Source of the DNA: Octopus vulgaris | Taxonomy: Eukaryota | Assembly (NCBI GenBank): GCA_951406725.2 | Contig: OX597823.1 | Span: 72,106,001-72,170,000, forward strand | Length of the DNA: 64,000 nt | Direction: 5' to 3' | In this document: one piece after another, positions 7,807-53,743 of the stretch | Layout: each line of letters begins with the position of its first letter | Position numbering within the stretch: position 1 is the stretch's first letter | The notes under the pieces: generated by a model | Seen by the model: the letters and a program-made list of their open reading frames with translations, nothing else | Database searches by the model: none | What the model was told of the DNA's origin: nothing | Made by a program: the position numbers and the translations under genes

Positions 7807-8402
<596 letters not shown>

Positions 8403-12273: not shown

Positions 12274-12874
12274 TATTTCTTTACTGCCCACAAGGAGATA
12301 CACACAGAGGGGACAAACAAGGACAGACAAACGGATTAAGTCAATTATATCGACCCCGGTGCGCAACTAGTACTTATTTAATCGACCCCGAAAGGATGAA
12401 AGGCAAAGTCGATCTCAGCGGAATTTGAGCTCAGAACATAGCAGCAGACAAAATACATATTTCTTTACTACCCACAAGAGGCTAAACACAGAGAGGACAA
12501 ACAAGGACAGACAAACGGATTAAGTCGATTATATCGACCCCTGTGCGTAACTGGTACTTATTTAATCGACCCCGAAAGGATGAAAGGCAAAGTCGACCTC
12601 GGCAGAATTTGAACTAAGAACGTAACGGCAGACGAAATACCTATTTCTTTACTACCAACAAGGGGCTAAACACAGGGAGGACAAACAAGGACAGACAAAC
12701 GAATTAAGTCGATTATATCGACCCCAGTGCGTAACTGGTACTTATTTAATCGACCCCGAAAGGATGAAAGGCAAAGTCGACCTCGGCGGAATTTGAACTC
12801 AGAACGTAACGGCAGACGAAATACCGCTAAGCATTTCACCCGGCATGATAACGTTTCTGCCAGCTCACTGCCTT
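12274..12874 (-). mobile_element. Family B SINE head-to-tail trimer (184-bp period) with 23-bp TSD
   Basis: Units start at 12274, 12458 and 12642 on the + strand; only the last carries the A-box head. Flanking direct repeats at 12252-12274 and 12875-12897 (21/23). GCCTTTCATCCTTTCGGGGTCGAT resembles the Deu/Nin SINE domain. Confidence 0.9.
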
Positions 12875-15241: not shown

Positions 15242-15249
15242 CCATAATT

Positions 15250-15320
15250 TGCATCGGCCGGGAATCGAACCCGGGCCGCCCGCGTGGCAGGCGAGCATTC
15301 TACCACTGAACCACCGATGC
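15250..15320 (-). tRNA. tRNA-Gly (anticodon GCC)
   Basis: GCATCGGTGGTTCAGTGGTAGAATGCTCGCCTGCCACGCGGGCGGCCCGGGTTCGATTCCCGGCCGATGCA: canonical 71-nt cloverleaf, perfect acceptor stem, A and B boxes, TA-rich sequence about 25-45 nt upstream. Confidence 0.98.
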
Positions 15321-15854
15321 AATTGCTTCTGTTGCAGGCCTAAAATATATATAAATATATAATAATATACAAGCTAAGAGTTTTCTGCTCGCTCTTCACA
15401 GAAAGATATCAGTATTCTAATCTATTGAAATACTGAAATATATTGATCCTACTCTGTTCTGTTAACGTTTATCATAAACAGGCCCTTCCTCTATATTTAC
15501 GTGCATTGGCTGGAATTATCTAAAGATTTCCTTATGATTGTGTTTATGATACCTGTATGCTTCCATTCACACACCTCTATTTAAAAGCGATCATTTTTCA
15601 TTTCCATTAATGGCTGAAATATTGGTGAAAGTAGAAATGGTAAATTCGAATTACCCGCATTTTTTTTTATATCTGTTACTTTAGAAACAGGTACAGGCGT
15701 TCCTTCATTCTAACTCGACAAAACCATAACCAGATCTTGGTTGATTCCGTGTCAACTCGACAATTCACTTCGGATATGTTCGTGACCTCCATGACAGTGT
15801 ACGTGTTCTGTTTTCATGTATTTATGTGGTGTGGAATATAGATATAACGAAATT

Positions 15855-17470: not shown

Positions 17471-17695
17471 ATATATATGTATATATGTATGTATTTGTGT
17501 GTCTATGTTTGTCCTCCATCAACTCTTGACAACCGATGTTGGTGTGATTACGTCTCCGTAACTTAGCAAAAGGGACCGATAGTATAAATACTGGGCTTTA
17601 CAAAGAATAAGTCCTGAGGTAGATTTGTTCGACTAAAGAAGGTGTTCCAGTATAGCCGCAGTCAAATGACTGAAACAAGTAAAAGACTAAAAGAA
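17234..17695 (+). mobile_element. Family A SINE
   Basis: Head, internal (TA)n and tail as in 4847-5249; short deletion in the CORE-like part. Confidence 0.85.
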
Positions 17696-17913
17696 TATGT
17701 TACTTTTAACTTTAATTTATCCAAAATGCTTCTTCATTCGTTTATGCAATCGTTTAAAATTACTTAAATATCTCTTTTGCGTGCATAATAATCACATGGA
17801 GATATACGATAGGTTTCTGTTGTGCAGTTCTAATCATTCAAACTATATTTACATTATTTACATTTGACGGATATTTGTCCTCATCTTGTTTGTTGTTAAC
17901 ACAACGTTTCGGC

Positions 17914-17995
17914 TGAACTCGGAATCTTGGTTAAGAACGCGGGCTTCTAATCCCAACATTCCTAGTTAGATTCCAGGCAGTGACCTGAATAGTAA
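17914..17995 (+). repeat. Left arm of ~81-bp inverted repeat; tRNA-like head followed by (TAA)n
   Basis: Reverse complement of 20955-21035 with about 6 mismatches; ggttaaga and gttagattcc resemble A/B boxes. Confidence 0.85.
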
Positions 17996-17997
17996 TG

Positions 17998-18080
<83 letters not shown>

Positions 18081-18081
<1 letters not shown>

Positions 18082-20837
18082 TATGTTTGACTTTTGCTTT
18101 ATATTTGTACAAGTTGGCTCCAAGTCTCACCCAGAGACCTCAAGAGACAACAGGGTTGGAAGTTCATGTTGTTGTTATGCCTAGTGTGCCATATATTTGG
18201 GGGGTGGGGATGTTGTACTAATGAATGTCTAAAAAAAAAAAGTTTTTTTTTTTTTTTTTTTTTTTTAAACCGAAAATTATGTTTGTTTTAAACCTTGAGA
18301 TTACATAGAGAGTATTTTGCGTAGGATATGAGCAGTTCCCATGAGCACTATCTTTTGAACTTCTGCCATTTTGGGGTTTCCTGGTATCTGAGTTAGGTAG
18401 CTATCAGCCCCTTTTGCTATCATTCCCAGGGCACCTATGACAACAGGTATTGTTTTAGTCTTCAGCTTCCACATTTTGCTGATTTCTATTTCAAGATCTT
18501 TATATTTGCTCAGTTTTTGGTAGGTCTTGACAGATACGTTTATATCGATTGGGACAGTCATATCAATGAGGAGGCATGTTCTTTGTTTGAAGTTTTTCAA
18601 TATGATGTCTGGCCTATTTGCATCTATCTTCCTGTCAGTTTGAATGGTGAAGTTCCAGAGGAGTGAGATGTGGTCATTTTCAAGCACTGGGGGTGGTTTG
18701 TGTTCCCACCAGTTTTTTTCATGGGGCAAATCCAGGTTTTTACAGATTACCCAGTGAATATATTGTGCAGCTCTATCGTGCCTGTTGAGATACTCTGTAG
18801 GCGCTAGAAGACTGCACTTGGAGACCACATGGTCAATGGTTTCATTTTGTTGCTTGCATACACGACACGTTGGACTGCTTCTGATCTTTAATATGTTGGC
18901 CTGGTAGTTTCTTGTTGGTAGGCATTGATCTTGAGCTGCTATGATAAACCCCTCTGTTTCAGATTTTAAGCCAGAGGCCATTAGCCATTGATGGGTCAGG
19001 GCTTTGTCGATATCTGCATTATTCGCTCTCTTTGGGTATTTGCCATAGAGAGGTTTTTCTTGCCATTTATTATTCAGAATATCTAAGGCCGCAGTTTTGG
19101 CACGGGTTTTCATGCGCCTAGCTTTTTCTGTGCTTGTTTCTTGTATATCTATCTCTAATTCCGAAATTGGTTGTATTCGGAGTTCACTTAGATATTCCTT
19201 TGCCTGTTTTGTGACTGAGTATGATGCTTTCTTGTTTTCATGTTTTGAGACAAGTTTTAGCATCCAGTCCTCAGAGTTTTTCAGGTAGGTGTCTAGGCCA
19301 ATTGTAGCAATCTTCATTGTTATTGCCAGTTGCAAAAGACCACGGCCTCCTCTTTTCTTGGCAGATAGAGTCGTTCTGTATCTGCCTTAGGGTGGTGCAT
19401 TCTATGCATTGTCAACAGTTTCCTTATTTTTCTGTCGAGCTGACATATTTCAGTAATTGACCAGTTAACAATATTGAAACTGTAAGTCACGACTGGTATA
19501 GCTAATGCATTGATTGCTTCGATCCTGTTTCTTGCATTCAGCTCTGTCTTGAGTATTGCTCTCACTCTTCGATAGCATTCTCTCCTGATCCTTTCCTTCA
19601 TCTCTGAATGCCTTATTCCGTTCCCTTCAATTATCCCTAGGTACTTGTAGCTCTCCGCTGGGTCTAGTTCTTTTATGACATTCTGTTGGTCAAGGTTAAC
19701 GTTAGATGTTTCTGTCATTTTTCCTTTGATAAAGGTAGCCTTTGCACATTTATCGAGGCCGAATTGCATTCTGATGTCGTCACTGAATTGTTTGACTATC
19801 GCTAGTAAGCCCTTGAGTTGTTGATCATTTTTTGCAAAAGCTTTAAATCATCCATGTAAACGAGATGATTTATATTTTTATCAAACATTTTATACCCGTA
19901 CTGCGCATCATTGAGCAGCTTTGAGAGAGGTATTAAGGATAAACAAAAGAGGAGTGGTGACAGTGAGTCACCCTGGAAAATGCCACACGAAATTTTTACA
20001 TCACCAGCATTTAGGGATTCACTGTCACTGTTCAGAGTTAGTGTGGTTCTCCATGATCTCATACTTACAGTCAAGAAGTTTCGCAGAGTTGGTGCTATCT
20101 TATACATTTCAAGGCATTCCCTAATCCAGCTATGTGGTAGGCTATCAAAAGCCTTTTTATAGTCTATCCAGGCTATTGATAAGTTTTTGTGTCGTTTGTG
20201 ACAATCTTCTAAGATCATCTTATTGATGAGTAGTTGGTCTTTACAGCCGTAGGATCCACGTTTACATCCTTTCTGTTCATTAGGGAATATGCTGCTGTCT
20301 GTTAAAAAACTATAGGTATATTCCGTCAGGACAGATGTTAGTGTTTTGTACATAGTTGTTAAGCAGGTTATGGGTCTATAGTTTTTTGGTTCATTTGTTT
20401 CTTCACTTTTTGGAAGCAGGAATGTTAACCCATTAACTAGCCAAGGAGGCATCCTACTAGGGTGTTGCAAAACATCATTGTACAGTTCTGTTAGCAGTTC
20501 ATGGCTCTCTGGGAAGGCATTCAGCCAGAAGTTAGGAATTTTATCCTTTCCTGGAGACTTCCATTTGCTTGACCTCCTGAGAGCAGATCTTATATCTTCT
20601 ACCTTGACACCCTCCCACTTTTGCTCTTCTAAGGGGTCCAGTTCTGTAGATATTCTGTCAATCCAGGGGGCCTTTTCGTTGTGTGTTTTTTCTTCTGCCC
20701 AGATTTTATTCCAAAATCTCTGCACTTCTTCTTTTGATGGTACAGACCCTGCAGTAAACGCTGTTTTTCCTATCTTCCTGTAAAAATTCTTGGTGTTATT
20801 TTTGAACATGTTGTTGTCCTTGAAAAATCTAACACGC
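18081..20837 (-). mobile_element. R4/Dong-clade non-LTR retrotransposon (restriction-like endonuclease type), 5'-truncated, in (TAA)n
   Basis: RT motifs NYRPITCL, WIDYKKAFDS, QGDSLSPLLF, YMDDLKL; CCHC CRVC..ETIDHVVSKC; RHD, RPDI, IDMTVP, K..KY endonuclease motifs; ~220-bp 3' UTR; (TAA)n at both ends. Confidence 0.93.
18301..20836 (-). CDS. RT/zinc-knuckle/RLE polyprotein, N-terminally truncated, two 1-bp frameshifts (~19837, ~19349)
   Basis: Three ORF-track segments (20809-19802, 19769-19320, 19335-18301) join into one ~845-codon stop-free frame if one base is restored at each short homopolymer (gives KLFAKNDQQL and RKEGGRGL). Confidence 0.85.
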
Positions 20838-20860
20838 TATTATTATTATTATTATTATTA

Positions 20861-20948
<88 letters not shown>

Positions 20949-20954
20949 TACTAC

Positions 20955-21035
20955 TACTATTCAGGTCACTGCCTGGAATCAAACTAAGAATGTTGGGATT
21001 AGTAGCCTGCGTTCTTAACAAAGATTTCGAGTTCA
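20955..21035 (-). repeat. Right arm of ~81-bp inverted repeat, preceded by (TTA)n at 20838-20954
   Basis: Reverse complement of 17914-17995. Confidence 0.85.
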
Positions 21036-21640
21036 ACTGTATTACTTAAACAATATATTTTCATGTATTAATCACAGTAAGGTATAAAATAAGAATCAGT
21101 TGTGCTTACAATTTAGCAAATATTTCTTCTTACCTAAAATTTTGATTTTGTTTTGTTCTGTTTTCCAAAATGCTCAATTGTTATGCGTTGATCATTATCT
21201 TAAAGGCAGGTCAGCGACCACAAAGGCAAAGGTTTCTTCTAGTCTTCCCCAATGTTTCTCACAGCCATTTTTGAAGTAACCTTAGTATGAGGAGAGCGTG
21301 CGGAGAAGGTTGTGGATACTCTAATTCCACCACGTAGGTACTTCTTTCCTCTCTATAGGAGTATGTAATATTGGAGAGGCAGACATGAGAGTGAAAAGTA
21401 AAACTCGCATAAATCTGTTGATGATTTCAACATTCAGACATCGGCCATCCGTATCACACCATTATTAGATTAAATGACAGAGAACGATATAGATTATCCA
21501 CAGATTCAGTAGTTGGTTACAGAAACCACAAATTACTGACATGCACAATCATTATGAAGAAGTCTAAAACCTTGATACTCGAAACTACATTGGTGTGTCC
21601 TACATTGAAAGATTCAATGATCAGATTAGCAAAACAGTTA

Positions 21641-23116: not shown

Positions 23117-23240
23117 TAGAATAAGTACTAGGCTTACAAAGAACAAGTCCTGGCGTTGATTTGCTCGATGAATGGCGGTGCTCCAGCATGGCCACATTCA
23201 AAATTACTGAAACAAGTAAGAGAGTAAAAGACTAAAGAGT
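23117..23240 (+). mobile_element. Family A SINE 3' fragment
   Basis: tagaataagtactaggcttacaaag...ggcggtgctccagcatggcc...gtaaaagac. Confidence 0.8.
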
Positions 23241-52129: not shown

Positions 52130-52175
<46 letters not shown>

Positions 52176-52615
52176 AAAAAGATTGACGTAACTCTTCACA
52201 AATAAGACGAAGAGCGCGATTCGATTGTAAGATATTTTATTTGAAAATGATCTCATTTCACTCCTCTGGAGGGCCAATTTCTATTTCAAGATCTTTATAC
52301 TTGCTCAGTTTTTGGTAGGTTATGACAGATACATTCATGTCGATTGGGAGAGTCATAGTAAAGCGGAGGAATGATTTTTGTCTGAAGTCTTTCAATATAT
52401 CAGAAATATTAAATTTCTAAATATCTCATAGAGATATGTACGGTGGTGGGGCGATAGAGTGGTTGTGTACTGTCAACTTAACGTGACAGTAGGGGATTAC
52501 ACCACCGCTGTTTAGCCCTAGGAAGCATCGACGCTTCCTGTCGGCTTCGACACATTTCCTGTGTCCTTATATATTTACGAAGGGGAGACAAATACCCCCA
52601 ACAGCTAGGCCTGCA

Positions 52616-52662
52616 TCTAGAGACACGCATGTTTCAGGGTCTTTGCCCATCATCGGTCTAGA
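52616..52662 (-). ncRNA. Type I hammerhead ribozyme motif (left arm)
   Basis: TCTAGA-CCGATGA-TGGGCAAAGACCCT-GAAACATGCGTGTC-TCTAGA; distal stem I CTGC/GCAG; GUC triplet. Confidence 0.7.
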
Positions 52663-52763
52663 GTAGCAGAAGTCTGGTGATCAGTGAATAAACTTCACTG
52701 AAAATTAGATATATATATTTACGAAGTCGAGACAGATATCTTCAAGTACCAGGCTTCTGATAC

Positions 52764-52810
52764 TCTAGATCGATGATGGGCAAAGACCCTGAAACATGCG
52801 TGTCTCTAGA
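52764..52810 (+). ncRNA. Hammerhead motif (right arm), core C3 mutated to T
   Basis: Same as left arm but core reads TCGATGA; probably impaired. Confidence 0.55.
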
Positions 52811-53194
52811 TGCAGGCCTAGCTGTTGGGAGTATTTGTCTCCCCTTCGTAAATATATAAGGACACGGGAAATGTGTCGAAGCCGACAGGAAGCGTCGATG
52901 CTTCCTAGGGCTAAATAGTGGTGGTGTAATCCCCTACTGTCACGTTAAATTGACAGTACACAACCACTCTTTCAATATAATGTCTGGCCTATTCGCATCT
53001 ATCTTTCTGTCAGTTTGAACGGTGAAGTTCCAGAAGAGTGAGATGTGACCATTTTCAAACACTGGAGGTGGTTTGTGTTCCCACCAGGTTTTACCATGGT
53101 CCAGGCTTTTGCAAATTACTCAGAGAATATACTGTGTTGCTCTATCATGCTGCACATGAAGACATGATCATTGGTTTCATTTCTTCTTCTTCTT

Positions 53195-53274
<80 letters not shown>

Positions 53275-53743
53275 CGTTAGCACACCGGGCAAAATGCGTG
53301 GCGACATTTCGTCCAACTTCGCGTTTTGAGGTCTAATGTCGATCTCGCTGACATTCGAAGCTTATTAAGAAGGAATAATTAAAATAATTAAAATTAATAA
53401 AATTAAAATACAATTATTAGAATTTATTATTTAGGACTAAAATTAGATGATATAATATATAATAACTAAATACTACCTCTTTCATTACTAGATAAACCAG
53501 CACTACACTAGAATCAATAAGTAACTCTAGATACATATAGTAGTACTCATACATCCAAGTGAACACAGTGGATTTTCAGTCCCTGCAAGCTCGGTGGTGA
53601 GTTGGATTGCCGTCAATGTTCCATGTAAACTGTTGTAATTCAACACTTGCAGCAAAAATATAGTCAAGGGGATAGTCAATATTCTAGAGGGCAAGTGCAA
53701 GAGATAGTAGTTAGTCTGGAGTTGGGACGAACTGCTTGAGTGA

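Follow-up and report, generated by a model that had tools for sequence, protein, structure and literature searches.

A 64-kb stretch of Octopus vulgaris DNA, referred to here as the window, contains a LINE retrotransposon that is enclosed by trinucleotide tracts and by two inverted arms. This arrangement raises the question of whether the locus represents a new kind of mobile element, a special landing site for the LINE, or an accident. As described below, the "cage" probably reflects nested insertions that came together once by accident, not a new kind of mobile element. The account that we favor, with modest confidence, is that a Dong-like LINE resides in the (TAA)n tract of a single Penelope-associated, tRNA-headed insertion, the front of which was copied backwards once, before the LINE arrived.

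Architecture of the locus

On the plus strand, the locus comprises an arm, (TAA)n, (TTA)n, the LINE on the minus strand, a (TTA)n/(CTA)n tract, and the arm again in inverted orientation. This is the layout given in the initial annotation, arm-(TAA)n(TTA)n-[LINE]-(TTA)n-inverted arm, and it is present in the sequence, as are the ~93% arm identity and the common odd outer junction reported there. The arms (17914–17991, plus strand, and 20958–21035, minus strand) align without gaps and are identical at 72/78 positions (92.3%), far above chance, with mismatches at left-arm positions 17922, 17929, 17941, 17946, 17962, and 17968. Both arms open with the same 16-nt piece (17915–17930 in the left arm), which is the reverse complement of a stretch within the head of the arm, with 13/16 and 12/16 matches. 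A third copy of the arm was not found in the 64-kb window (blastn, word size 7, E ≤ 1).

The left copy of the 16-nt inverted head piece, the "odd junction" (17915–17930, minus strand), is the reverse complement of head positions 17953–17968. It is followed by the left arm proper (17930–17991, plus strand), a decayed, 5′-truncated tRNA-like head that would be the fold-back copy. The putative fold-back center (17992–18080) reads on the plus strand as (TAA)n to 18033 and as (TTA)n at 18034–18080, and the (TTA)n half can also be read as the (TAA)n tail at the 3′ end of the LINE or as its target. The LINE occupies 18081–20837 on the minus strand, and a (TAG)n(TAA)n tract (20838–20957, minus strand) lies upstream of its 5′ truncation point. 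The right arm (20958–21019, minus strand) is likewise a decayed tRNA-like head and would be the 5′ part that the host repeat had originally, and the second copy of the 16-nt inverted piece (21019–21034, plus strand) lies at the 5′ end of the host insertion, adjoining a putative target-site duplication.

Identity and state of the LINE

The LINE is a 5′-truncated element of 2757 bp with features of the Dong/R4 type of RLE LINEs, as judged from RVT_1, zf-RVT, tblastn tiling, and motifs. Three stop-free frames (20836–19829, 19847–19350, and 19359–18304) tile without gaps onto full-length relatives of ~1150–1250 aa with 52–68% identity (tblastn), and each of the two frameshifts falls at a short homopolymer run. 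With respect to these relatives, the 5′ truncation has removed a median of 368 residues. The 3′ UTR spans ~18300–18081 and contains an A11-G-T25 run at 18231–18267, a homopolymer hairpin that is possibly an assembly error or a small fold-back.

Pfam identifies RVT_1 with an E value of 1.3e-20 and zf-RVT weakly. RLE LINEs are defined by an RT that is followed by a CX2-3CX7-8HX4C knuckle and a PD-(D/E) endonuclease with a KX2KY helix (PMC5678591), and the CCHC knuckle and the RPD..D and K..KY motifs are found in the window LINE. Among the 31 RLE rows printed in supplement 6 of PMC5678591, which were compared by eye and without a tree, the RT motifs YRP[IL]TCL, DY[KR]KA[FY]DS, and MDD[LI]KL occur only in the four R4/Dong rows; the corresponding motifs of the window RT are YRPITCL, DYKKAFDS, and MDDLKL. 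The closest of these 31 printed rows, again by eye, is Dong of Bombyx mori, which also has WKSPG.DKI.NFW and MQFGLDKC (PMC5678591). R2 structures match the LINE only at E values of 1e-14 to 1e-19, a PDB search with the RLE frame gave 0 matches, and in a protein-cluster atlas the LINE matches unnamed eukaryotic clusters only, the names of which supply no element name. An N-terminal C2H2/CCHC-like motif upstream of the aligned part is found in 0/76 relatives of at least 1100 aa, the window copy itself being without this region. The lack of N-terminal zinc fingers sets Dong/R4 elements apart from R2 and NeSL. The clade scheme of RLE LINEs, including the N-terminal fingers of Utopia, is given in PMC4640811. 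Together, RVT_1, the RLE motifs, and the Dong-like RT motifs support the proposed membership of the LINE in the Dong/R4 clade, with the motifs compared by eye and not placed on a tree.

Similar to Dong elements of the R4 clade (B. mori Dong, DongAa, and DongAg), the window LINE appears to have a single ORF with RT, CCHC knuckle, and RLE, the same RT motifs, sense-strand (TAA)n on both sides, and a 5′ truncation. The LINE itself is no different from these elements; this copy has lost ~370 N-terminal codons together with the 5′ end, at which a self-cleaving ribozyme is located in B. mori Dong (PMC3774820), and its TAA target happens to be the center of a local palindrome. Dong-R4 elements are abundant in O. 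vulgaris, for which 51 families and 1129 recently active insertions have been reported (PMC13282606).

Insertion into (TAA)n

TAA microsatellites are the target of Dong (PMC3812793), and (TAA)n is present on the sense strand at both ends of the LINE, consistent with the earlier proposal that it inserted into (TAA)n. Sense-strand (TAA)n also lies just 5′ of the ORF match in 5/11 related metagenome loci (four of them distinct); three of the other six are without a tract, and three are without upstream DNA. None of the 11 loci matches the arm; they come from other organisms, in which the arm is not expected, and cover only 5′ junctions. A distant R4-type relative (39% identity) lies on a contig that starts with a tRNA-like sequence (L003:1-60) ~450 bases upstream of the first ORF match, and it is possibly a tRNA-adjacent element.

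The window contains a second Dong fragment (52130–53276) that is 86% identical to the first, covers the RLE region, is rearranged, and lies between TTA tracts with no arms. A (TTC)15 run precedes its right-hand TTA tract. A palindromic insert within this fragment (52399–52973), which may be MITE-like or another fold-back, has 226-nt arms that are 96% complementary, a 69-nt spacer, and a short flanking direct repeat. In addition, a (TAA)18(TTA)15 junction is found at 7871–7969 without arms or a LINE, so a (TAA)n(TTA)n center is not special in itself. The surrounding region, 7807–8368, holds compound microsatellites of the types (ATG)(ATA)(ATT)(TAG) and (CTA)(TAA)(AAG). The suggestion that a palindromic repeat had served the LINE as a special landing pad finds no support in these comparisons, in which arms are absent from the plain TAA tracts that contain or precede the second Dong fragment and four distinct relatives. 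Ordinary (TAA)n targeting probably brought the LINE here.

tRNA-likeness of the arms

The arms had been called tRNA-like, and the right arm had been suggested to place Pol III-like boxes upstream of the LINE ORF. ARAGORN finds no tRNA in the arms, nor does Rfam at E ≤ 10 when given the arms alone. Scored against the A- and B-box consensus sequences, the head of the arm contains a B-box-like 11-mer with two mismatches (zero in the control), which lies 37 nt from a GG, a near-tRNA spacing given the 35 nt of the control; the best A-box match has two to three mismatches and is out of place. The control was an intact tRNA-Gly(GCC) gene of the window (15249–15321, minus strand). The description as tRNA-like thus holds for the 11-mer and its spacing and fails for a tRNA that ARAGORN or Rfam would recognize.

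Runs of T stop Pol III, and the sense strand of the LINE carries one T5 at base 11, another at base 52, and twelve runs of at least four T. With the A box absent, the B box damaged, and a T5 as early as LINE base 11, a functional Pol III promoter in the right arm was rejected. The sense orientation of the LINE behind the right head follows from the polarity of the TAA strand, and no further cause is needed.

The host repeat and a probable target-site duplication

The left arm is not the end of the repeat to which it belongs. The host repeat extends 64–68 bp further to the left, and this extension and the target-site duplication outside the arms had both been missed in the initial annotation. 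The contigs of four sequencing runs (X1, X5, X7, and X9) were aligned to 17500–17990; the depths of single contigs were taken by eye from a single table, and summed depth does not equal copy number. In all four runs (organism labels A–D), 17846–17916 is very high-copy, with a summed depth of 1–11 million. The family contigs end at 17846, and in all four runs the family continues past 17916 with a single loose end. By contig depth, 17850–17916 (minus strand) would be the 3′ tail of this very high-copy repeat, carrying the 3′ half of a candidate hammerhead: the 3′ strand of stem II at 17915–17911, GAAA at 17910–17907, CG, and the 3′ strand of stem I at 17902–17899, all on the minus strand. On the minus strand, the sequence of the loose end contributes ACAC, CTGATGA, one extra base, and GGCTG. 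Taken together by eye, the window bases and the loose end form a minimal type I hammerhead with a 4-bp stem I, CTGATGA, the extra base, a 5-bp stem II starting with G-C, GAAA, and a palindromic CG. The locus itself holds the 3′ half only, the 5′ half coming from the loose end of the family, and Rfam gives no hammerhead match for the half motif in the window. Minimal type I hammerheads with such features have been described in Penelope-like elements (PMC4209133).

A 9-bp direct repeat with 8/9 matches (17841–17849 and 21035–21043) abuts both ends of 17850–21034 and resembles a target-site duplication; the last four bases of the left copy also fit the repeat tail. Among random window pairs, an 8/9 pair arises by chance in 65/20000 cases with narrow freedom of the ends and in 545/20000 with wide freedom (0.3–2.7%). 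The best direct-repeat pair around the arms alone is 4/5. Since the 9-bp pair bounds 17850–21034 and the left tail is high-copy, the unit is most simply read as one minus-strand insertion that runs from the right arm to the tail. The head, the (TAA)n tract, and the hammerhead presumably belong to one Penelope-associated repeat, as the target duplication suggests. Penelope insertions with inverted pLTRs have 8–10-bp target duplications (PMC3846280; compare PMC8557442). The unique flank at 17738–17822 has no cover in three of the four runs, which proves nothing.

The host behaves like a Penelope end repeat, a provisional assignment with the hammerhead compared by eye. As in the pLTRs of Penelope-like elements (PMC4209133; PMC3846280; PMC8557442), the candidate hammerhead has the core boxes, a 4-bp stem I, an extra base before stem II, a G-C first pair, and a palindromic stem III remnant, and the insertion has a short inverted 5′ piece and a 9-bp duplication. 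The main differences are that the host repeat has, in addition, a tRNA-like head and contains a (TAA)n tract and that the locus is without a Penelope ORF, has half of the hammerhead deleted, and carries large arms placed tail to tail.

Two further repeats were observed in the window. A separate, very high-copy SINE-like repeat occupies 17517–17703, with a depth of up to 44 million and a second copy at ~23134–23234, and 12274–12825 consists of three head-to-tail copies of a 184-bp unit with 92% matches.

Origin of the inverted arms

The summed depth of the head family over 17959–17990 is 0.05–0.7 million, and the majority letters of the family differ from the left arm at 17946, 17951, and 17957. 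Both arms have the minority letter at 17951 and 17957, where the family majority accounts for 95% and 97% of the X1 depth, respectively, and at 17963 both heads differ from the inverted piece. These common rare letters and the common difference at 17963 argue for one template for both arms, which probably arose as sister copies when a fold-back template switch took place once at this site.

The junction between tail and left arm is rare. At 17920 its depth is 323/125/31/13 in X1/X5/X7/X9, corresponding to ~2–7 contig-equivalents and lying 1400–5600-fold below the depth of the head family (summed depth, not copy number), which excludes a family and leaves room for a few copies. The left junction is not peculiar to this assembly, since one X5 contig (label B) spans 17888–17990 with three differences. 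The left arm lies where the repeat would be expected to have its middle part and the 5′ hammerhead half, and TCA, common to hammerhead stem II and the right boundary, provides a 3-base microhomology. As single strands, the arms and tail fold no better than shuffled sequences (z values of −0.5, 0.7, and −1.0). A 23-nt motif of the arm has 0 matches among metagenome contigs, a result that says nothing about an animal repeat.

MITE or foldback DNA transposons with terminal inverted repeats also exhibit a spacer between two inverted arms. The arms here are not terminal, the repeat continuing left to 17846–17850, and they were rejected as terminal inverted repeats because no target duplication flanks them, the best pair being 4/5. 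Nor is there support for a MITE, a foldback element, or a composite bounded by the arms, the last of which had been raised as a possible composite mobile element: in addition to the missing duplication, the junction is near-private.

The locus also resembles short-range template-switch mutations, of which a single inverted repeat is the main product under a two-switch, four-point model (PMC7954356). In both cases a reverse-complement copy of nearby sequence replaces the original, and one inverted repeat is left. The locus differs in that the ancestral state is reconstructed and that the copied piece would be ~120 nt.

Order of events

The LINE has 0 stops in 2532 coding bases. In simulations, this outcome has a probability of ~0.02 if the LINE had decayed as the arms have by point estimate (3.8% per arm) and of 0.20–0.24 if the lower 95% bound for the arms (1.4% each) is used instead. 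In all probability the LINE is younger than the palindrome, although the order of the fold-back and the LINE is not firm. Together with the common rare letters of the arms, the stop-free LINE is consistent with the earlier suggestion that a fold-back site with a microsatellite center probably preceded the LINE.

The favored account, a Dong-like LINE within a single tRNA-headed Penelope-associated insertion that had been copied backwards once, would comprise three steps. First, as the 9-bp duplication and the family depth suggest, a minus-strand copy of the repeat would have inserted at what is now 17850–21034, consisting of the short 5′ inverted piece, the head, (TAA)n, the middle part, the hammerhead, and the tail. 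Second, during later DNA synthesis, the new strand would have folded back within the TAA tract, copied the tract, the head, and the inverted piece in reverse up to the 5′ edge of the insertion, and then returned to the template at the TCA microhomology in hammerhead stem II. This would have removed the middle part of the repeat along with the 5′ hammerhead half and left a palindrome with a (TAA)n(TTA)n center. Third, a Dong/R4 element, for which the target is evident and the timing conjectural, would have entered one half of the tract by target-primed reverse transcription, in the orientation set by the TAA strand.

Alternative explanations

The strongest competitor, possible although we regard it as rather doubtful, places the fold-back within the insertion of the repeat itself. 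A Penelope-type RT would have jumped between templates and its cDNA would have folded back, such that the palindrome and the 9-bp duplication arose together and the Dong element came later. Penelope insertions often form inverted and tandem structures (PMC3846280), and a mechanism of self-priming and template jumps at trinucleotide repeats has been put forward (PMC3846280; PMC8557442). At this locus, the end of the palindrome coincides with the target duplication: the reverse copy ends at most one base from the edge of the insertion, which would be a coincidence if the fold-back took place after insertion. In addition, among the rows listed, the family majority agrees with the 67-nt tail throughout, compared with three shared changes in the head (P ~0.08), so that the tail seems, in these rows, less decayed than the head. 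A consensus-like tail next to a changed head hints at a template that had already diverged at the time of insertion, and the clean tail and the position of the copy end both fit a fold-back during a Penelope-type insertion. This explanation, however, packs at least three switches into a single event and needs a head template that had diverged although the tail and inverted piece are consensus-like, and the usual Penelope pairs described in PMC3846280 are head-to-head, whereas the arms here are tail to tail.

It is quite improbable that the 3.2-kb unit, LINE included, was copied from elsewhere by Penelope machinery acting on repeat-derived ends, and no observation calls for such a transfer. The 9-bp duplication does enclose the LINE, capture of unrelated DNA flanked by pLTRs with an 8-bp duplication is known in Adineta (PMC3846280), and the ~7 contig-equivalents of the junction in X1 give space for a few more copies. 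In X9 and X5, however, the junction is near the level of two arms, at ~2–3 contig-equivalents; the duplication is already mismatched while the LINE has no stop codon; half of the hammerhead is deleted; and TAA targeting alone accounts for the position of the LINE.

A history in which two heads inserted independently, in opposite orientations, to the left and right of a TAA tract and were evened out by later gene conversion, or a collapsed or chimeric assembly, would be very improbable. The head family is abundant and the homopolymer frameshifts could be consensus errors, as such readings would have it, but the whole unit is bounded by one target duplication and the outer edges of the arms have no separate ones. 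Moreover, the arms differ at 6/78 positions, unlike a palindrome made by a chimeric read, and the X5 contig spans 17888–17990.

Least probable of all is that the Dong enzyme itself reverse-copied its upstream flank while joining ends, an idea to which the position of the fold-back center directly at the 3′ tail of the LINE lends some appeal and against which stand the 7.7% divergence of the arms beside a stop-free LINE (P ~0.02 at the point estimate) and the other Dong fragment, which has no such copy (the related loci hold only 5′ junctions and say little).

Implications

The locus is best described as known kinds of element, nested once, plus a local fold-back, and no part of it is predicted to function or to move as a unit. 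In the titles and abstract openings searched, a range outside which most subscription papers fall, a Dong element nested in a tRNA-headed Penelope repeat was not found.

A broader connection between the two elements, in which Penelope moved the whole 3.2-kb unit with its 9-bp duplication or Dong prefers the internal (TAA)n of the tRNA-headed Penelope repeat across the genome, is improbable. If the preference were true, strand polarity would always set the LINE in sense behind the tRNA-like head, and the LINE would be carried or transcribed by the Penelope end repeat. Enrichment of Dong in the TAA tract of the repeat, or movement of the unit as a whole, would link two unrelated classes of retroelement. 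As it stands, the locus is a worked example of how a fold-back switch at a microsatellite can mimic terminal inverted repeats, and it calls for caution in repeat annotation.
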